From: a virus
Lineage: Duplodnaviria; Heunggongvirae; Uroviricota; Caudoviricetes
Virus record (IMG/VR): IMGVR_UViG_2718218171_000002
Location: 1 to 39,731 of that record
Direction: 5' to 3' (one strand)
Length of the DNA: 39,731 bases
Shown here: one piece after another, positions 24,033-37,854 of the stretch
Numbering within the stretch: the first letter of the stretch is position 1
How the letters are laid out: the number at the start of each line of letters is the position of its first letter
Made by a program: the position numbers and the translations under genes
Notes under the pieces: generated by a model
Told to the model about the DNA's origin: nothing
The model's input: only the letters and a program-made list of their open reading frames with translations
The model's database searches: none

Positions 24033-24554
24033 TTATTTCGATATCGTGATGTTGTTTTCCTCGTCAAACTTTCTGATTACTTCTCTCGCCTCTTCGAATG
24101 AAGAACATACTTTTTGCACTCTTGCATTAAGCAGTCGCTTATGAGCGATCCATCTTTTCCGCGTGTTGCAAAAGTAAACTCCAGATATTCCGCTGGAGTT
24201 ATTTTTAGATAGTTTGATTCTATTCCTTTGGTTTGCTGATTTTTTCACAAGACGAAGATTTTCAATTCTGTTGTCGTGGCGAATCCCATTTATATGGTCA
24301 ATTTCCATGCCTTCTGGAATATCTCCGTTAAACATCACCCATACGATGCGGTGTGCTAGCCACTTAATGCCGTTAATTCTTATGCGGATATATCCATTGC
24401 TTTCTAAAAGACCAGCAACTTTCCCAGCGTGTTTTGCATTCCAAACGTTGTGATAGTTGCGATTCTTTTTGTTGTTGAAAAATTCAGAGCTTCTGGCTTT
24501 CCAAACCAAAGAGCCATCGCGGTATTCGAAGTATTCATTCAGTTCCATGCTCAT
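24033..24554 (-). CDS. HNH homing endonuclease (HNH_3 plus AP2-like DNA-binding domain)
   Basis: 173 aa; motif EIDHINGIRHDNRIENLRLV and C-terminal GISGVYF..RKRW; AT-rich; antisense to the late operon. Confidence 0.75.
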   Translation of the reverse strand: MSMELNEYFEYRDGSLVWKARSSEFFNNKKNRNYHNVWNAKHAGKVAGLLESNGYIRIRINGIKWLAHRIVWVMFNGDIPEGMEIDHINGIRHDNRIENLRLVKKSANQRNRIKLSKNNSSGISGVYFCNTRKRWIAHKRLLNARVQKVCSSFEEAREVIRKFDEENNITISK

Positions 24555-30570: not shown

Positions 30571-32046
30571 ATGGCTACGTGGCAACAGGGTATTAATTCT
30601 GGTGGGTTTCTTGCTGGCATCGGTGCGCAAAATGAGAATGCGCCAAAGGCAAGCGACATTAACGCAACGCTTGGTCTGATCCGCGAAAACAATGAACTGG
30701 CTCGCTCAGGTGCAAATAACGTTGGTCTGACCGCGTTACGTGGTCTGGCTGGAGTTGCTGATATTTATAAGCAGGAACAGCAACAGAAAGCGATTAATGC
30801 GTTCAATAAGGTTCATGCTGATGCATGGGCTTCTGGTGATCCATCGGGACTATTTAAGTTTGCCCAGGAAAATCCAGCGTTTGTTGCACAGGCACAACAG
30901 GCATTTTCCGGTCTTAATGAGCAGCAACGCAACGATATGGGCGATTTAGCCATGAGGGCTAACGTCGCTCTTTCTCAGGGACCGGAAGCCTACAGTAAAT
31001 TCATTACTGATAACAAGGACAGGTTAAATCGCGTGGGGGCGAATGCTGACTGGATGATTCAGACAGGTATTCAGAATCCAGAGCAGCTATCACACATGCT
31101 GACTACTATGTCTCTCGGTGCACTTGGGCCAGAAAAGGCGTTTGCTGTTCAGGACAAGATAGCTGGTCGTGAGATTGACCGAGGCAGACTGGCAGAGACA
31201 ATCCGCAGCAATCAGGCCAGCGAAGCACTTCAGGCGAGAGGGCAGGATATTAGCCGAGCAAATGCGTTAACGTCAGCATATGCACCAACAGCCGCAATGC
31301 AGAATTACAATCAGTACGCGCAAATGTTAAAGGCGGATCCAGATGGTGCAGCGGCATTTGCGGCAGCGGCGGGAATTAATCCCAATGCTAAGAAATTACT
31401 TAAGGTTGAAACCAATCCTGATGGATCGGTAACTAAGTATTACACCGATGGCAGCGAGGAAGCAGGAAAACTAAACCAACCTATATCTGGTGATGGCATT
31501 AAACCAATTAGTTTGCCACAAGCGCAAAGCATCATAGATAAGGCTAATGAGGGTTCCAAGAAGGCGGCAGGATTTGCTTTGCGATTAAAAGATTCAATGG
31601 ACTCAATGAATCAGCTTAGTAAAAGCATTGACCCTAAGCGAGTTGCATTAATAAATCGCTCTCTTGGTGATGGGACTATTGCAAATTTAAGCCTATCACC
31701 AGCGGAGCAGCAATATATGGTAAATGCGAGAGACGCCTTGTATGCAATTTTGCGCCCAGAAACAGGTGCAGCAATTACTCTGCCAGAGATGCAGGAGTAT
31801 TCCAAAATGTACCTGCCTCAGCCCGGTGATTCCAAGGCTGCTACTGAAACAAAAATGCGAAAAATGCAGGGCCAATATAACTCATTACGTGGTCAGTCTG
31901 GTCGCGTTTATGATGCTTTGGTGGTTTCAAGTGCTGCAAATAGTCAACAACAGAGCAATAGCCAACAACCGACAAATACCCAACAGCAGCAGAGTCAATC
32001 CGGATCATATACCTCAAAATCAGGCATTCAATTTACGGTGGAATGA
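30571..32046 (+). CDS. 20: ejection protein (P22 gp20-like)
   Basis: 491 aa; gene order. Confidence 0.7.
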
Positions 32047-34172
32047 TGAAAGTAACTGCAAACGGTAAGACATTTACCTTCCCTGATGGTACGAGCACGG
32101 AAGATATTGGCACCGCCATTGATGAGTATTTTGCTGGTCAGGCTGTTCAGCAACAAACAGTTAATCAGGCCAATAATGAACCAGCACGTGAAGAACCATC
32201 ATTGATGCAACAAGCTGGCGATTGGCTCACAGGTGGTCAAAGTGCAGGGCAAATTGCAGAGCAGGCTGGTCGTGGTCTGGTAAACATACCATTTGACGTA
32301 TTGCAGGGTGGCGCAAGTCTGATTAATGCAATCAGCCAGGGGCTTGGTGGCCCCAAGGTTTTGGATGATGTTTATCGCCCTGTCGATCGACCGACAGACC
32401 CTTACGCGCAAGCCGGTGAAACAATTGGTGGGTATCTCCTGCCAATTGGCACAGCGGCAAAAGCTGCTGGAGCGCCAGCAAAGCTCGCTGGAGATATCGG
32501 TTCCGCAGGAAACATGATTGCAGGTTCTCTTGCTGATGCTGCAAATCAGGAGGGCGACTTTGCACAAAATGCTGCCATTAACGGTGGTATCAATATTGGT
32601 GCTCAAGGCGTTCTTTCAGGTGTCGGGCGCGTTATTGCGCCAAGGGTTTCACAGGCTCTTGGTGGTGCAGCACTGAATTCTGCTAATGATGTTTCCAGGA
32701 TGGCAAAGTCAGGTGCTGGGCGTCAGTCAATTGCCAGTCAGGCCGCTAATGTGTCCGAAGATGTAGCAAAAGCAGCTGAGTCTGCTGGAATTGATATAAA
32801 CGCATTAACACCAGGAATGCGATCTGGAAGTCGTGGAATTGCACAAGCCGAAGGCGCATTGGCATCAACACCAGGAATTGTTCAGGACGCCCATCAGGCA
32901 GCATTTAACGAAATATCATCAAAGTTAAGTCGAAACCTTGATGAATTTGGGGCCGCATCTGGAACGGCATCAGAAAAAAGTGCGGCTATAAAACAAAGGA
33001 TCCTTCAAAATCTTGATCAGATGAAGGATGCCGAGCGCGAGGCATGGGATGACGTGCGGTCAACAATGCCAAATCAAAAAGCAAGAATGCTAAATGGTAA
33101 TGCCGTTATTCAGGCAGAGCGATCTGCTGGCATACCGCTTACTCCTGAAATGAAACAGTTTGTTCAGGCAAACAATCAAGGTGGAGTAACATTTGATGGC
33201 ATGAAAGCATGGAGAGCGAAATTTGCTGATGCGGAGCAAAAATATAAGCGTAGCGGAGAGGCAAATGCGGCAAGGAGAGCAGGGGAAATACGCCGGGCAA
33301 TTACTGATGATATGCGCACAATGGCGGAAAACGGCGGATTTCTTGATGACTGGCAGAAAGCTAATGATCTGTCTAAAGCGAGGTTATCAGCACAAGAGGG
33401 TGCAGAGTCTGTTTTCGGGCGTGATTTGGCAACAGATGCACTGATTACGAATGGAGTAAAATCCCTTCAATCATCTTCAGCTAAAGGTCTTAATGGTCCT
33501 GCTGGATTCCATTCTATGATCCGCGCTCTGCCGGTATCAGAGCGTGTTCCTGCTATATCATCAATGCTGCAAGATGCTATCTCGCATGGTGTCCGTGGTG
33601 GCAAATCTGATGCAGCAGGAATTAACCATATTGCAGAGATACTCACGCCACAAAATGTAAAAGCCATTAGCCGATATTCCTCAGAGCTTGGAAGAATTGC
33701 TGATGCATATGGCACTCTTGCAAGAGCAGCTGTGAAACCTCAGCAGCATATTGAAAGAACAGGGAGAACTGCCAATGTACTACGCGATCTTGATGCTGGT
33801 TTATCCAACGTTACATCAACAGTGTTAAATGCAATTGCCAACTCAACATCAGGTGCCATTGTTGGTGGAGCAGGAGGCGGGGGCGTTGCTGGCGCTGCCG
33901 CAGGTGCTTTAATTGGCGCTGGGTTAAAAGGCGCTGTATCTAAAATTGCCACCACACGTAGTGGTCGGTATGCGATAGAGAAAGCAGTTCAGGAAGCAAC
34001 TAAAGCAGTAAGAGCAGGCGGAAGCAAAGAAGCATTAGTGGCGGCTGAACGCAGATTTATGGCAAATAAAGCTGCCGTAAAAGCAATACGTGACACAGTC
34101 GGAAACGAAGAGTTCAATCGCTTAGCGAGGGCTGGCATTGTAGCGTCGCTAAGCGGAATAGCACAGGAGTAA
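32043..34172 (+). CDS. 16: ejection protein (P22 gp16-like)
   Basis: 709 aa; Gly/Ala-rich segments; gene order; ATGA coupling. Confidence 0.7.
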
Positions 34173-34496
34173 TTAATCATCCATGGATGGATTGAGCTTA
34201 TCTCGTGTTGATGTGGCGATTTGTCCTACATTTCTAAGCCAAGATTTCAAATCCTTGATATTGTCATTGATTTCATGAATATCTTCTTTTTTTAATCTGT
34301 TAACATTATTTTCAATAATTTCAATGGATTGCTCAATATCAGATATAGTGAATGATAGTTTGTTCTTCTCATCTTTTATTGAGTTTTTAAGTGCTTCGTT
34401 CTCAGTCTTGAGGTCAGATATCTTTTGTTTTAAAGATGCCAGTTGGTACTGAACCACAATGAGTGCGATAGCTATCACGATAACTGTTGTATACAC
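34173..34496 (-). CDS. single-pass membrane coiled-coil protein (107 aa), function unknown
   Basis: GTG start after AAGGAGG RBS; N-terminal TM helix TTVIVIAIALIVVQY; strongly AT-rich; stop abuts gene 16 stop. Confidence 0.5.
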   Translation of the reverse strand: MYTTVIVIAIALIVVQYQLASLKQKISDLKTENEALKNSIKDEKNKLSFTISDIEQSIEIIENNVNRLKKEDIHEINDNIKDLKSWLRNVGQIATSTRDKLNPSMDD

Positions 34497-34613
34497 ACCA
34501 ACCTCCTTAGTTTTGAGCAGGATACCATGAAAAAAGTAAACATCTTTTGCCTACTTCACATTTGAATGTTTTGTCATTAGGATGTTTCCGGTTTTTTAAA
34601 TATGGAAATTGAT

Positions 34614-35033
34614 ATGAAGAGGATTATCGGCGTCGTTGCTGGCGCTATATTGTTATCTGGGTGCGCAACTATTGTTGGTGACGAAACACAGCTTGTGCAA
34701 GTGAACAGCAATCCTTCCGGTGCGATCTTTAAGGTAAAAGACGAATCAGGCGTGATTGTTGCGCAAGGTAAGACCCCGCAAGGAGTAACTCTTGCCAAGT
34801 CGGATGGTAGTTATTTTGGCAAAAAGAGCTACCAGATCACTATGGAGAAGGATGGGTACGAACCAGTTACCCTGCCAATCAAAGCCAATGCTAATGGTTG
34901 GTATATTGGTGGGAACCTTGTGTTTGGTGGGTTAATTGGTTGGCTTGCTGTAGATCCATTTAATGGTGGGATGTATACCTTGAAGCCAAAAGAGGCAAAC
35001 GCATCTCTTATACCATCAACAAAGCAAGACTAA
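34614..35033 (+). CDS. predicted lipoprotein with PEGA-like domain (alternative start 34602)
   Basis: Signal peptide with lipobox LLSGC; PSGA..GKTP motif; Gly-rich hydrophobic C-terminal segment. Confidence 0.55.
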   Translation: MKRIIGVVAGAILLSGCATIVGDETQLVQVNSNPSGAIFKVKDESGVIVAQGKTPQGVTLAKSDGSYFGKKSYQITMEKDGYEPVTLPIKANANGWYIGGNLVFGGLIGWLAVDPFNGGMYTLKPKEANASLIPSTKQD

Positions 35034-35041
35034 TAAATAGG

Positions 35042-35066
35042 ACCCACCTTCAGGTGGGTTTTTTGT
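35042..35066. terminator. bidirectional intrinsic terminator between lipoprotein gene and mnt
   Basis: Stem ACCCACC/GGTGGGT with TTCA loop followed by TTTTTTG; mnt stop codon lies within the hairpin. Confidence 0.6.
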
Positions 35067-35301
35067 ACAAATCCTTCAGCGTATCAAACACCATCTTCTT
35101 AACAAGCTCTGATTGCTCATCAGCGATGCGTTCCGCATCGTCTCGATAGCCTGAAATTTTGGATGGCCTTGATACAGCATCAGTCACTATCTGAACTAAT
35201 TCTGAATTAAGAGAGCGGCCATTGGATTTGGCTCGCTGTTTTAGTTTTTCCTTTAATTCGTAAGGTAGCCGCAGATTAAATTGCGGGTCATCTCTTCCCA
35301 T
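35050..35301 (-). CDS. mnt: Mnt repressor (ribbon-helix-helix, P22 immI)
   Basis: 83 aa, matches P22 Mnt as remembered, including C-terminal ERIADEQSELVKKMVFDTLKDLYKK. Confidence 0.85.
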   Translation of the reverse strand: MGRDDPQFNLRLPYELKEKLKQRAKSNGRSLNSELVQIVTDAVSRPSKISGYRDDAERIADEQSELVKKMVFDTLKDLYKKPT

Positions 35302-35436: not shown

Positions 35437-37854
35437 ATGACAGACATTACAGCCAATGTTGTAGTGAGCATGCCTTCGCAACTCTTTACTATGGCCCGCT
35501 CTTTTAAAGCCGTAGCTAATGGCAAAATTTATATCGGTAAAATTGACACTGACCCAGTAAATCCAGAAAACCAGATTCAGGTTTATGTGGAGAACGAAGA
35601 CGGCTCTCACGTTCCTGTTTCTCAACCAATCATCATTAACGCTGCTGGTTATCCGGTATATAACGGACAGATTGCCAAGTTTGTAACTGTGCAAGGCCAT
35701 TCTATGGCTGTTTATGATGCGTATGGTGCGCAGCAGTTCTATTTTCCTAATGTGCTGAAGTATGACCCTGATCAGTTACGTCAGCAATTAGAAGACCCAT
35801 ATGGTGCGGAAAAATACCCTGAATTACAAATAGCCAGATGGATAGATGATGGAGATGTAAGGGGGTGGGGGTTAAAACCAGGCTATTATTTTGATAATAG
35901 TTCTGTATGGGAAAATCTGTTAAATTCTGGACGCAAAGATTTTGTTGTGCCTTCTGGTGTTTTCAGATTTTCTAACGGAATTGATATACCAGGAGACTTT
36001 AGATTTATAGGGCAGGGCTCTCCTATTCTTGGTTTTGGCACAGATGATGATAAGCATTTTTTGTCTGAAGGAATTAAGCAAAACATGCCGGGTTCATCAT
36101 TTATATTTTCTGGAAAAGGGACAAGAGAAGCCACGGCGTACAATCGCAATGACCAATTTTCAAGCGTAAGGTATTGTGTGCGAGTTATGTCACCAGAGTA
36201 TGGTTCTAGTGGAGCCGTATTACGTGGTATTGCAATAATTCAGGACATGGTCTGCTTTGATGGTGATGGTATTCCAACAACCCCTAATAATGATATGCGT
36301 TCAGATTATGAGTGTGGTGTTTATTACGACGACTCTGCAAGAAATCTTCAGGAGGATGTTTGTGTATTCGGATACTTTTCAAAAGCAGGTACAATAATTC
36401 AGTCAAAGCAAGGAAACGATGACCCTGATTACAATACCATTACTGGTGGGTCAACTATGGGGAGAGTCGGTTTAGCAATTCTTGGTTCAAACACTGGGCC
36501 TGCAAGTTATGGTCTCAGCGGAACTAGAGTAGATAAATGTGGTATTTATACCCTTGATCACCACAGTCGTGCATCAATGTCTCATGAAGAGCTTGTTTCT
36601 TATTACTCTAGCGCAAACACATGGCGATGCCTTTATATAGATGGTGATGTTAATGCGACATCCGCTGAAATAAATGGGCATTACTTTTATGGCTGTGAGT
36701 TTAGAACCAGAGCTAATCATGCATTAGAATTTGATCACGCATCCAACATCCAGTTTTATGGTGGCGTGGTAGAGCAATCCCCTTATGGTATTACAAATTC
36801 AGATATTCCGACTTTTATTGGTTCTGAGAATGTAAAGAGAGGCGTTGGTTTTTATGGCGTGCGCATGAATTATATTTCTCAGATATTTAATGACAATTTT
36901 GCTGGAGTGATTCCTGTAAAAATAATAGTTTCAGGCGATCCGCTAAACGGTAGATTTGGAGTTGTAGGTAAAGACCCAGCAGGCGGTTATACCGTTGCAA
37001 TTCTTGGCTCTGATGGGAATATTGGTGACGCATCAATTCAGTTTACGAAGAATGCTGCTGATGGGTCTACAGGATGGAAAGTGATGATGGATGCAAGCTC
37101 CGACAGACTATTGGTCAGCAAGGATGGAGAAACCATGACGTCACTCACTGAGACAGGAATGTACACTGTATCGGCTCCATCTGGTTCTGATGCTATTCTT
37201 GGCCTGCTCAGTAATGGCAACGCTACATCTTGGTTCATGAGAACACAATACAACAGTGTAGGTCAATTACAGTTCAGACATGGTGGGTCTGGAGCTACTC
37301 CAGCAATGCAAATAGCAACGTCAGGAGGAATAACTCCTGGAACTGATGCCACTTCAAATATAGGTAGCGCATCACTACGATATAACATTGGTTATTTTGC
37401 CGGAGGAACCCAGTCAAGCTCTGATGCAAGACTGAAGGATCCGATAAGAGAAATGACAGATTCTGAAAAGTCAGCAGCTAAAGAAATAGGAGAAATGATT
37501 GGGTTTTGGACATGGATTGATGATGACTCAAAGCGTTTGCATGCAGGAATAACAGTTCAATCAGTTATATCTGTATTAGAAAAACATGGATTAAATTGGA
37601 GGAATTATTCATTTATAGGTTTTGATGAATGGGATGACATATATGATGATGTAGTTAAAGACATCGAAGTTGAAGATGCGAATGGTAATAAAAAAATAAT
37701 ATCGGTTAATTCTGGAGAGAAAAAGCTTGTAAAAAAAGCAGGGAATCTTTTTCAATTTAGAGACCAAGAATTAGACAGATTTATAATGAGAGGGTTATCA
37801 GAAAGGATATCTGATATTGAAGATTTATTGATTAAAAAAGTTATTAAACAATAA
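35437..37854 (+). CDS. 9: tailspike protein: P22 gp9-type head-binding domain, beta-helix-type receptor-binding region, C-terminal intramolecular chaperone (S74-like) domain
   Basis: N-terminal ~115 aa matches P22 gp9; SDARLK self-cleavage-type motif about 144 aa from the C-terminus; 3' ~440 bp strongly AT-rich. Confidence 0.85.

Follow-up and report, generated by a model that had tools for sequence, protein, structure and literature searches.

The two small genes between the gene-16-type ejection gene and mnt of a P22-like prophage are best explained as two separate morons lying side by side, one (hkcB) encoding a predicted inner-membrane protein and the other a predicted outer-membrane lipoprotein. 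We put the probability of this explanation as a whole, with the roles proposed below, at roughly 55%. The window, that is the whole stretch of 39,731 nucleotides analysed here, comes from E. coli C4, in which it is a complete P22-like prophage.

The slot between gene 16 and mnt

The earlier note had placed the pair in the slot where P22 carries sieA, and this is borne out: the genes lie between gene 16 (32043-34172), which matches the PHROG 770 DNA transfer protein with E=6e-230, and mnt (35050-35301), and P22 has sieA in the same place. They are also divergent as described (minus strand, 34173-34496; plus strand, 34614-35033). The features of the slot are as follows.

33936 to 34172, plus strand: 3' end of the gene-16-type DNA transfer (ejection) gene, encoding a C-terminal module of ~78 aa
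34173 to 34496, minus strand: hkcB homologue (epsilon34 gene 14), 107 aa; phrog_5962, E=1e-58, a family with no functional label
34502 to 34508, minus strand: Shine-Dalgarno sequence of hkcB, AAGGAGG, 5 nt 5' of the GTG start, read from the sequence
34527 to 34544, plus strand: hkcC scar, the first six codons (ATGAAAAAAGTAAACATC, MKKVNI), divergent afterwards, from comparison with HK620 and A26
34555 to 34583, plus strand: predicted sigma-70 promoter of the lipoprotein gene (TTCACA, 17 nt, TAGGAT), from a promoter scan and alignments
34614 to 35033, plus strand: lipoprotein gene (epsilon34 gene 15, Gally GALLYPH_14), 139 aa, its start supported by annotation and homology
35039 to 35064, plus strand: intrinsic terminator, a GC hairpin then U6 (-14.2 kcal/mol, z=-3.1), annotated as Rho-independent in epsilon34
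35050 to 35301, minus strand: mnt, Arc/Mnt-family repressor, right boundary of the slot (Pfam Arc E=1e-21, Repressor_Mnt E=1e-18; PGAP annotation)

The stop codons of gene 16 and hkcB abut (TAA/TTA), no arc or ant gene follows mnt in the window, and the tailspike gene starts at 35437. The slot is the hypervariable 'ant moron' hot spot that extends from the ejection genes to the tailspike gene of P22-like prophages. The same pair, with 95.9% nucleotide identity and the same order, orientation and terminator, forms genes 14 and 15 of epsilon34, which were published in 2008 as 'ant moron' genes (PMC2629481). HK620, CUS-3 and SEN22 have hkcB at the same place as in the window, and the lipoprotein gene of Gally/LF82 is 97-98% identical to the one studied here. 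Unlike epsilon34, HK620, CUS-3, SEN22 and Gally, the window has an immunity-I region reduced to mnt alone and a different tailspike gene.

A moron in the sense of Juhala and Hendrix, as PMC3594210 sums it up, is an insert in a phage operon with transcription of its own. As expected of morons, presence varies among syntenic relatives, and many genomes have one gene without the other. In phage Dewey the same gp16 C-terminal DNA is present and gene 16 runs directly into the tailspike gene with no moron; the match to Huey and Louie is limited to the same gene-16 3' end, and Sf6 and APSE lack the region (PMC2629481). The base composition sets hkcB apart, with 32.7% GC (32.5% in the spacer) against 48.3% in gene 16, 42.9% in mnt and 39.9% in the tailspike gene. 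Both genes had been described as much more AT-rich than their structural neighbours; this holds for hkcB, whereas the lipoprotein gene, at 45.2% GC, is not distinctive, lying near gene 16 and above mnt and the tailspike gene.

hkcB and the C-terminus of gp16

The GTG start of hkcB is kept in all homologues, and the 107-aa product has one hydrophobic segment (residues 1-23), in agreement with the single-pass minus-strand protein first proposed. AlphaFold2 returned a single helix over residues 2-101. The predicted product is a bitopic membrane protein, anchored by a transmembrane segment at its N-terminus and made up of one long helix, with a conserved C-terminal motif, W-x-x-NVG-x-IA-x-STRDK-x-NPS. 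A heptad count places hydrophobic residues at 11 of 24 a/d positions at best, which is not convincing, so that the case for a coiled coil comes from the long helix of the model and from weak matches to families of such proteins. There is no positive residue before the transmembrane segment and K23 and K25 follow it; the topology is therefore ambiguous, and the helix could be cytoplasmic.

Homologues of hkcB form only 21 clusters among 5.8e9 proteins, a profile search for remote relatives found almost none (about 7 among 1.84e9 representatives), and by these comparisons the gene is restricted to P22-like phages. Its product has no detectable similarity to any characterised family: Pfam and NCBIfam searches gave coiled-coil noise and nothing diagnostic, and PADLOC-DB 2.0 gave only coiled-coil-level matches (E>=6e-4) to SMC-like proteins. 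Down to 50% identity the ORF, the GTG start, the strong Shine-Dalgarno sequence, the transmembrane segment and the C-terminal motif are all conserved, and distant relatives keep the same architecture. The dN/dS ratio is 0.19-0.26 in distant pairs and reaches 0.39-0.79 in some close pairs, these higher values resting on few substitutions. No sigma-70 promoter for hkcB was detected in the promoter scan, and the gene has no terminator because it abuts gene 16; a promoter and terminator of its own were found for the lipoprotein cassette only. In CUS-3 and UTI89, hkcB ends the leftward mnt-side gene string.

The C-terminal ~78-120 aa of gp16 are 72-97% identical at all 27 hkcB loci of IMG/VR and in epsilon34, CUS-3, HK620 and A26, and they are unrelated in Gally, TUM11352, O111 and P22, all of which lack hkcB. 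Judged by sequence, one type of gp16 C-terminus always accompanies hkcB in the loci examined, a linkage that may be mere adjacency. Relatives with the same gp16 end lack hkcB, which is therefore dispensable for phage growth.

This linkage invites comparison with SieA of P22, which targets the C-terminal regions of gp16 and gp20, where escape mutations map (PMC10883804); hkcB in turn travels with one C-terminal module of gp16. The two genes share a sub-slot (minus strand, immediately behind gene 16), and the hkcB product is likewise, by prediction, an inner-membrane protein of P22-like prophages. They differ in that P22 SieA has several transmembrane segments and the hkcB product one hydrophobic segment. 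Homology between them was considered and rejected, as BLASTP against P22 SieA gave E=0.048 over 18 residues, and FxRYPxEAxxFNK, the motif of the SieA family (P22 types A, B and C), is absent from both the hkcB product and the lipoprotein.

The lipoprotein cassette

With the supported start at 34614, the lipoprotein gene encodes 139 aa, not the 140 aa first given, and is separated from hkcB by 117 bp. The 105-bp intergenic region of the earlier note has to be revised; it fits an alternative upstream ATG at 34602, from which the product would be 143 aa. That the product is a lipoprotein stands. Judged by the lipobox pattern [LVI][ASTVI][GAS]C, preceded by a signal peptide and not followed by Asp at +2, the signal peptide has the lipobox LLSGC (LLSG-C17-A-T, with Ala at +2), and Cys17 and Ala18 are invariant across 42 homologues. 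The lipobox and the +2 residue are those of a Lol-type outer-membrane lipoprotein, with lipidation and localisation predicted. Both genes of the pair thus encode predicted envelope proteins, as had been proposed, one from its transmembrane segment and the other from its signal peptide and lipobox.

Residues 25-93 are predicted to form a transthyretin/PEGA-like beta-sandwich; a near-invariant glycine-rich hydrophobic motif, better conserved than any other part of the family, occupies residues 94-121 (NGWYIGGN..FGGLIGWL.VDPFNGGMY) and is followed by a C-terminal hairpin. The predicted fold is consistent with the PEGA-like assignment made earlier, but the match to Pfam PEGA (PF08308; E=0.011) scores 16.1 bits against a cut-off of 20.8, and PEGA matches at E<=0.01 occur in 5 of 42 family members, the best with E=1.2e-5. 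Unlike PEGA and transthyretin-like (CarboxypepD_reg) proteins, the lipoprotein has the motif of residues 94-121, which lies outside PEGA and matches no Pfam model. Apart from the sub-threshold PEGA match, Pfam and NCBIfam gave a weak LEPBI_I2678 match and nothing diagnostic, PADLOC-DB 2.0 gave no match, a PDB sequence search returned chance matches to RNA polymerase beta' only, and no relevant report of a characterised PEGA-type phage lipoprotein turned up in literature text searches. The dN/dS ratio of 0.05-0.06 indicates strong purifying selection.

Homologues of the lipoprotein, 50-80% identical to it, occur in 303 species genomes of gamma-, beta-, zeta- and delta-proteobacteria; most lie outside prophages, and their neighbours are not conserved. 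Clustering the neighbours of 80 loci revealed no broadly common operon partner of the chromosomal homologues; lineage-specific neighbours include PAS-GGDEF-EAL, ABC-F, MurJ, a lipid A acyltransferase and an OMP barrel, and the Lonsdalea homologue is followed by an ORF that proved not to be a paralogue. Only 124-126 of the 5,426 complete genomes of E. coli have the gene. In prophages it is inserted at the T/H, H/M, K/I and I/J junctions of lambdoid tail operons, where it also sits alone, as well as between gene 16 and mnt. By its sequence relationships, the lipoprotein gene is one captured from a widespread proteobacterial chromosomal family.

The gene appears to move with its own signals. The predicted promoter has a counterpart in Gally (TTCACG, 17 nt, TAAGAT), and the -10 element and 5' UTR are also kept in a Pseudescherichia lambdoid prophage. 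The strong terminator noted at its 3' end is confirmed (35039-35064). The same hairpin follows mnt on the minus strand with a poor U tract, and it was this minus-strand version that the scan picked up. A hairpin and T-run also stand 3' of the gene in E. coli lambdoid, Proteus and Pseudescherichia prophage contexts, and in all prophage contexts the gene has its own terminator. The junction with hkcB retains a trace of an earlier occupant: hkcC of HK620 and A26 opens MKKVNIGNV..., the window reads MKKVNIFCLLHI and then a stop, and up to position 34543 the window and A26 are 99.2% identical. This scar shows that the lipoprotein cassette replaced hkcC beside hkcB.

Published RNA-seq of LF82 shows expression of the Gally orthologue from the repressed prophage. 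In DMEM and macrophages, the four conditions other than LB, the log2(fpkm+5) of GALLYPH_14 is 9.4-11.0, compared with 3.6-4.2 for the neighbouring injection gene and 10.5-12.0 for the C2 repressor (PMC9928086 S1 Table). It is thus transcribed near the level of the repressor, with the adjacent late genes at background, and independently of those late genes. The authors of that study applied a 5-fold cut-off in LB, by which GALLYPH_14 was not scored as a moron (PMC9928086).

A precedent for such a gene is gp15 of HK97, a YebO-like moron of host origin. It lies between the genes for the tail chaperone and the tape measure and encodes an inner-membrane exclusion protein (PMC3594210). Like gp15 (PMC3594210), the lipoprotein gene is a tail-operon moron from a bacterial chromosomal family that is expressed from the prophage, and in E. 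coli and Proteus prophages lipoprotein homologues occupy exactly the gp15 site, the T/H junction. The two are unrelated in sequence: gp15 is small, resides in the inner membrane and has diverged from YebO, whereas an outer-membrane location is predicted for the lipoprotein, which remains close in sequence to its chromosomal homologues. Cor, Llp of T5, Ltp of TP-J34 and Bor and Lom of lambda are comparable as small prophage-encoded envelope proteins, made in the lysogen from genes near tail or late genes, but none is homologous to the lipoprotein, and the family of the latter, unlike Cor and Llp, is broadly chromosomal.

Assortment of the two genes and their candidate roles

Among the 5,426 complete E. 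coli genomes, 155 carry hkcB, 124 the lipoprotein gene and 10 both, where ~15 joint carriers would be expected under independence among ~1,250 P22-like tailspike loci. In IMG/VR, 11 of 27 hkcB loci also carry the lipoprotein gene. Elsewhere hkcB is accompanied by hkcC (HK620, A26) or by a YafO-family toxin operon (CUS-3, UTI89), and the lipoprotein gene by a different lipoprotein of 161-171 aa (Gally, TUM11352) or by a 122-aa ORF (O111). The two genes therefore assort independently, as separate add-on cassettes and not as the parts of one exclusion system. The earlier note had proposed such a system, an inner-membrane helix protein and a lipoprotein acting as one envelope-spanning two-component superinfection-exclusion module. 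The genes are indeed adjacent and divergent from a common spacer, their products are predicted in the inner and the outer membrane, and the IMG/VR co-occurrence could be read in the same way, but joint carriage in E. coli is not above chance, either gene is found with other partners or alone, the hkcC scar records the arrival of the lipoprotein cassette by replacement of another gene, and the lipoprotein family is mostly chromosomal, in bacteria without hkcB. These data leave the two-component reading disfavoured, and we consider it very improbable. The same architectures, a bitopic coiled-coil protein and an outer-membrane lipoprotein, resemble the two spanin subunits and would suit a lysis accessory of the Rz/Rz1 kind, and PHROG gives weak matches with Rz-like spanins (E about 1e-3). 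Those matches are at the noise level of coiled coils, however; the genes are divergent, not nested or in tandem on one strand, and are not inherited together, relatives without both genes exist, and the lipoprotein, with its 139 aa, is a folded beta-sandwich that has homologues in chromosomes. Since a lysis cassette (holin, GH24 endolysin and Rz-type lysis protein) is already present in the prophage ~15 kb upstream and the two genes assort independently, this reading was rejected, with hardly any probability left to it.

Two further alternatives concern the genes singly. The lipoprotein alone could be an exclusion factor of the Cor/Llp type, acting on the periplasmic face of a receptor or on the outer-membrane step of ejection. 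Its gene recurs beside tail-tip, tape-measure or ejection genes in four phage types and is co-oriented with the late genes while also being expressed from the prophage; the very short tether after Cys17 and the hydrophobic motif would hold the protein against the outer membrane, and exclusion lipoproteins such as Cor and Ltp are known (PMC10883804, PMC3594210). Yet the sole PHROG match to Cor (phrog_1119, E=0.003) is to the signal peptide, residues 1-20, and the family is ancient, chromosomal, conserved and under purifying selection, unlike the fast-evolving, phage-restricted exclusion lipoproteins. The carrier phages differ in tail type and probably in receptor, and late-operon junctions tolerate morons generally, which makes position weak evidence (PMC3594210). 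We regard this role as possible but unlikely. A factor of this type would protect the lysogen and also save progeny from loss on cell debris. hkcB, for its part, might act otherwise than by blocking DNA entry, as an abortive-infection or toxic membrane protein, as an antisense regulator of late read-through into the tailspike gene, or not at all, as an AT-rich remnant. The gene is very AT-rich, follows a YafO-family toxin gene in CUS-3 and UTI89, and shows high dN/dS in some close pairs (0.39-0.79, from few substitutions); it is also convergent with gene 16 with no spacer, so that hkcB and late transcripts must collide. Conservation of the ORF, start, Shine-Dalgarno sequence, transmembrane segment and motif to 50% identity, a dN/dS of about 0.2 and the same architecture in distant relatives stand against these possibilities, which together we judge quite improbable.

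In the preferred explanation, of two separate morons, the hkcB cassette fills the minus-strand sub-slot directly behind gene 16, where P22 has sieA, and would supply a small protein, with a long helix and an inner-membrane anchor, that only P22-like phages encode. By analogy its likeliest job is SieA-like: its product, unrelated to SieA, would act at the inner membrane and interfere with the ejection-protein conduit of P22-like phages entering the cell. The second cassette is seen as a self-contained promoter-gene-terminator unit from a chromosomal lipoprotein family that took the place of hkcC here and would be active in the repressed prophage, as RNA-seq showed for its 98%-identical orthologue in Gally. 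The gene has the orientation of the late operon, so that late transcription during lytic growth is expected too. Its product should be sorted to the outer membrane, where a very short tether would hold it at the inner leaflet, and most likely gives the lysogen the conserved envelope function of its family (lysogenic conversion), a function that is for now a biochemical placeholder. Phage exclusion at the outer membrane would be a possible, unproven use of this function. Argued by analogy from position, exclusion is plausible for hkcB, and the case for the lipoprotein is weaker than for hkcB. A bolder version, in which hkcB is a new, SieA-unrelated inner-membrane blocker of the gp16/gp20 conduit that co-evolves with the gp16 C-terminus and, independently, the lipoprotein is a host-derived outer-membrane factor that temperate phages with several types of tail have captured again and again and set next to tail or ejection genes as a broad entry barrier, seems to us doubtful.

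The pair as such is already published and consists of ordinary morons, and the two-component logic proposed for it fails. Should either protein exclude phages, the few DNA-entry blockers listed for Gram-negative bacteria would be joined by a new family, and hkcB would in that case provide a second, unrelated probe of the P22-type ejection conduit beside SieA. The lipoprotein represents a conserved proteobacterial envelope family that about 2% of E. coli genomes have received through prophages; in LF82 its gene is strongly on in cell-culture medium and inside macrophages.

Anatomy of the slot and earlier records

E. coli strain C4 (NZ_CP010121.1) carries the window as a complete P22-like prophage, integrated between sbcB and dacD. 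The region between the DNA transfer gene and the tailspike gene is arranged as follows.

32043-34172 (+), gene-16-type DNA transfer gene
34173-34496 (-), hkcB, a 107-aa ORF
117 bp, spacer between hkcB and the lipoprotein gene
34614-35033 (+), lipoprotein gene, a 139-aa ORF
35039-35064, hairpin (-14.2 kcal/mol) followed by a U6 tract
35050-35301 (-), mnt
35437-37854 (+), tailspike gene

The anatomy proposed in an earlier note is largely right. The pair does occupy the position of P22 sieA, likewise a minus-strand gene directly behind gene 16, and the strong terminator placed after the lipoprotein gene is present as the hairpin and U6 tract. The 105-bp intergenic region proposed there corresponds to an ATG further upstream, at 34602; the supported lipoprotein start at 34614 gives the 117-bp spacer and, for the plus-strand lipoprotein, 139 rather than 140 residues. 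The idea that both genes are much more AT-rich than their surroundings is half right, as only hkcB is compositionally distinct (32.7% GC; spacer, 32.5%), while the lipoprotein gene has 45.2% GC against 48.3% for gene 16 (mnt, 42.9%; tailspike gene, 39.9%).

The tailspike gene encodes a P22 head-binding N-terminal domain (Pfam E=8e-67) and a C-terminal Peptidase_S74 (endosialidase chaperone) domain, and the immunity-I region consists of mnt alone, without arc, sar or ant. Elsewhere in the window, a 173-aa gene at 24033-24554 (-), named 'HNH endonuclease signature motif containing protein' by PGAP, lies between the scaffold and major capsid genes on the opposite strand; its stop codon abuts that of the scaffold gene, tail-to-tail like hkcB and gene 16, and it is probably a homing-endonuclease insertion within the otherwise invariant procapsid gene cluster.

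Both genes of the slot were previously recorded as uncharacterised morons. The pair is 95.9% nucleotide-identical to genes 14 and 15 of Salmonella phage epsilon34, of which the first is homologous to hkcB of HK620. The term 'ant moron' for the stretch from gene 16 to the tailspike gene comes from Villafane et al. 2008 (PMC2629481), who distinguished ten types of it among sixteen genomes and described epsilon34 genes 14 and 15 as of unknown function, with gene 15 matching many bacterial genes. To this record the present analysis adds the independence statistics, a slot made up of two sub-slots and marked by an hkcC scar, the association of hkcB with one gp16 C-terminal module, the descent of the lipoprotein cassette from bacteria and the variety of tail-operon junctions at which it is inserted, and RNA-seq values, so far overlooked, that show strong expression of the lipoprotein gene in a lysogen.

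Two independent cassettes in two sub-slots

The earlier note read the pair as a two-component exclusion module, a reading that the counts over 5,426 complete E. coli genomes do not support.

Occurrence in 5,426 complete E. coli genomes
P22-type tailspike head-binding sequence: 1,250 places in 1,116 genomes
hkcB DNA: 155 genomes
Lipoprotein gene: 124 genomes
Both genes contiguous: 10 genomes
Both genes, expected under independence (derived): about 15

The genes are found together no more often than expected, and each sub-slot holds alternative cassettes, showing that hkcB and the lipoprotein gene are two independent cassettes. In IMG/VR both are present in 11 of 27 hkcB loci, which shows the combination to be a common but not obligatory mosaic. 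Among annotated examples, the minus-strand sub-slot behind gene 16 carries sieA (P22), hkcB, an unrelated 161-171-aa lipoprotein (Gally, TUM11352) or a 122-aa ORF (O111 prophage), and the plus-strand sub-slot carries either hkcC (P22, HK620, A26) or the lipoprotein gene of the window.

The spacer retains the first six codons of hkcC (MKKVNI, 34527-34544, +) within a remnant (34527-34565, +) that then runs out of register until a stop. From these six codons we conclude that the lipoprotein cassette took the place of hkcC beside a resident hkcB, the remnant marking the recombination joint. In other E. coli genomes, the ends of matches fall at a few points of the spacer (window positions 34494, 34554 and 34604), a clustering which suggests that cassettes are exchanged through it as a linker or 'boundary sequence'.

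Envelope proteins of various types seem to accumulate in the sieA/hkcB sub-slot. The unrelated lipoprotein of Gally (GALLYPH_13, L002 2391-2906) and TUM11352 (L022 3391-3876), of 161-171 aa, has the lipobox LLAGC and a Gln-rich helical middle. In CUS-3 and UTI89, hkcB is the last of a leftward string of two mnt genes, a 200-aa ORF and a YafO-family toxin gene, a probable prophage-expressed operon. The toxin gene and the overlapping 200-aa ORF, which precede hkcB on the same strand (L134 2847-3850 in UTI89; L004 3620-4623 in CUS-3), may form a toxin-antitoxin pair.

hkcB and the C-terminus of gp16

The gene starts with GTG preceded by AAGGAGG and converges on gene 16, the two stop codons having no intervening spacer; a promoter scan detected no hkcB promoter. 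Its description as a single-pass membrane coiled-coil protein holds for the membrane segment, the only hydrophobic one (residues 1-23), and for the long helix, which is unbroken over residues 2-101 in the AlphaFold2 model (mean pLDDT 81), but the coiled-coil matches are at noise level, as is every match other than phrog_5962 (function unknown). The membrane orientation is ambiguous. The family is tiny (21 clusters among 5.8 billion proteins, about seven relatives among 1.84 billion representatives), and two distant relatives retain the TM segment, the long helix and a W..NVG.IA motif. A dN/dS of about 0.2 in distant pairs indicates that hkcB is a constrained coding gene.

At every hkcB locus examined, gp16 is of the epsilon34/CUS-3/HK620 type, with the C-terminal ~78 residues in common; in phages without hkcB (P22, Gally, TUM11352, O111 prophage) this terminus is unrelated. 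Dewey has gene-16 3'-terminal DNA about 90% identical to that of the window and yet no moron, so hkcB is not needed for ejection or assembly; Huey and Louie have the same partial gene-16 match. Escape mutations from SieA map to the C-terminal regions of gp16 and gp20 (Leavitt et al., PMC10883804). Its sub-slot, its membrane anchor and its association with one type of gp16 C-terminus together suggest that hkcB would most likely disturb the conduit formed by the ejection proteins of an incoming P22-like phage. It shares with P22 SieA the sub-slot behind gene 16 but no sequence similarity, and our best single guess, at a probability of roughly 0.3, is that it acts as a block at the inner membrane in the manner of SieA.

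The lipoprotein, its family and its expression in a lysogen

The lipoprotein has a signal peptide, a lipobox (LLSG-C17) with Ala at +2, and a tether of only about seven residues ahead of the first strand, and its sequence bears the marks of an outer-membrane lipoprotein. The PEGA-like fold ascribed to it is consistent with a confidently modelled beta-sandwich (residues 25-93); Pfam PEGA stays below threshold for the protein itself but matches 5 of 42 homologues. Beyond the sandwich, the model has a glycine-rich hydrophobic stretch (residues 95-112, low confidence) and a hairpin (residues 121-131). Conservation in the family peaks not in the sandwich but in the motif NGWYIGGN..FGGLIGWL.VDPFNGGMY.

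Judged by its homologues, the family is not phage-specific. Relatives of 50-80% identity occur in 303 species genomes, including Halomonas, Photorhabdus, Lonsdalea, Pasteurellaceae, Nitrosomonas, Gallionellaceae, Mariprofundus and Syntrophaceae; recognisable tail genes lie near only 6 of the 80 best loci, and the chromosomal neighbours are lineage-specific housekeeping genes. E. coli has no core copy, the gene being present in only 126 of 5,426 genomes, and dN/dS of 0.05-0.06 indicates strong purifying selection. A chromosomal homologue in Enterobacter (L014 6001-6390), with no phage genes nearby, has on one side an aldehyde dehydrogenase gene that closes an ABC-transporter cluster and on the other a toxin gene of the GhoT/OrtT family; by K-12 synteny we take the homologue for an accessory gene inserted in the region from ydcS-W/patD to ortT.

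In phages the gene is a classic self-contained moron. A GC hairpin and T-run of its own follow it directly in P22-like, E. coli lambdoid, Proteus and Pseudescherichia prophages, and the predicted promoter (TTCACA-17-TAGGAT; TTCACG-17-TAAGAT in Gally) keeps its -10 element and leader in Pseudescherichia. Insertions are found between gene 16 and mnt (P22-like phages), tail chaperone T and the tape-measure gene (E. coli ED1a-type, Proteus), tape measure and M, K and I, and I and J. The tail operon of the ED1a-type lambdoid prophage holds, besides its T/tape-measure homologue, a second envelope moron, a porin gene (Porin_1/Porin_4) between M and L (L005, L007 10261-11424).

Gally, a prophage of E. 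coli LF82, carries a 98.3% identical gene, GALLYPH_14 (LF82_139), for which expression values are available (Misson et al. 2023, Supplementary Table S1, PMC9928086).

Expression in LF82 as log2(fpkm+5), two values per condition
GALLYPH_14 (lipoprotein): LB overnight 6.2/4.8; B1 9.8/10.2; B6 10.5/10.2; MB1 11.0/11.0; MB6 9.4/9.5
GALLYPH_12 (adjacent injection gene): LB overnight 3.9/3.6; B1 3.7/3.7; B6 3.6/3.6; MB1 4.0/4.0; MB6 4.2/4.1
C2 repressor: LB overnight 9.9/8.9; B1 10.8/11.0; B6 10.5/10.6; MB1 12.0/12.0; MB6 11.2/11.3

The table legend names growth in LB, DMEM and macrophages, and the main text gives MB6 as macrophages 6 h post-infection (PMC9928086); we read B1 and B6 as DMEM, and MB1 and MB6 as macrophages, at 1 h and 6 h. 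These values show that GALLYPH_14 is transcribed autonomously from a repressed prophage, at a condition-dependent level. Misson et al., using a 5-fold threshold in LB, judged Gally to be free of morons (PMC9928086); because that threshold concerned overnight LB cultures only, the expression of GALLYPH_13 and GALLYPH_14, which in DMEM and macrophages greatly exceeds that of the late genes beside them (PMC9928086 Table S1), went unremarked. Transcription of GALLYPH_13 is likewise higher than the prophage background and increases in macrophages (log2 10.3).

A lysogen would gain from the lipoprotein the envelope function conserved in the chromosomal family, a function that E. coli would otherwise lack. 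HK97 gp15, a YebO-derived moron at the same T/H junction as some lipoprotein homologues, acts as an exclusion protein (PMC3594210), a precedent for host-derived morons gaining such a role. That the envelope function is used for phage exclusion, as with Cor or Llp, nevertheless seems unlikely, as this chromosomal family is ancient and evolves slowly. Since the gene is co-oriented with the late operon and its terminator separates gene 16 from the tailspike gene, antiterminated late transcripts should extend through this terminator too, consistent with the role in setting tailspike levels proposed for the P22 ant moron (PMC2629481).
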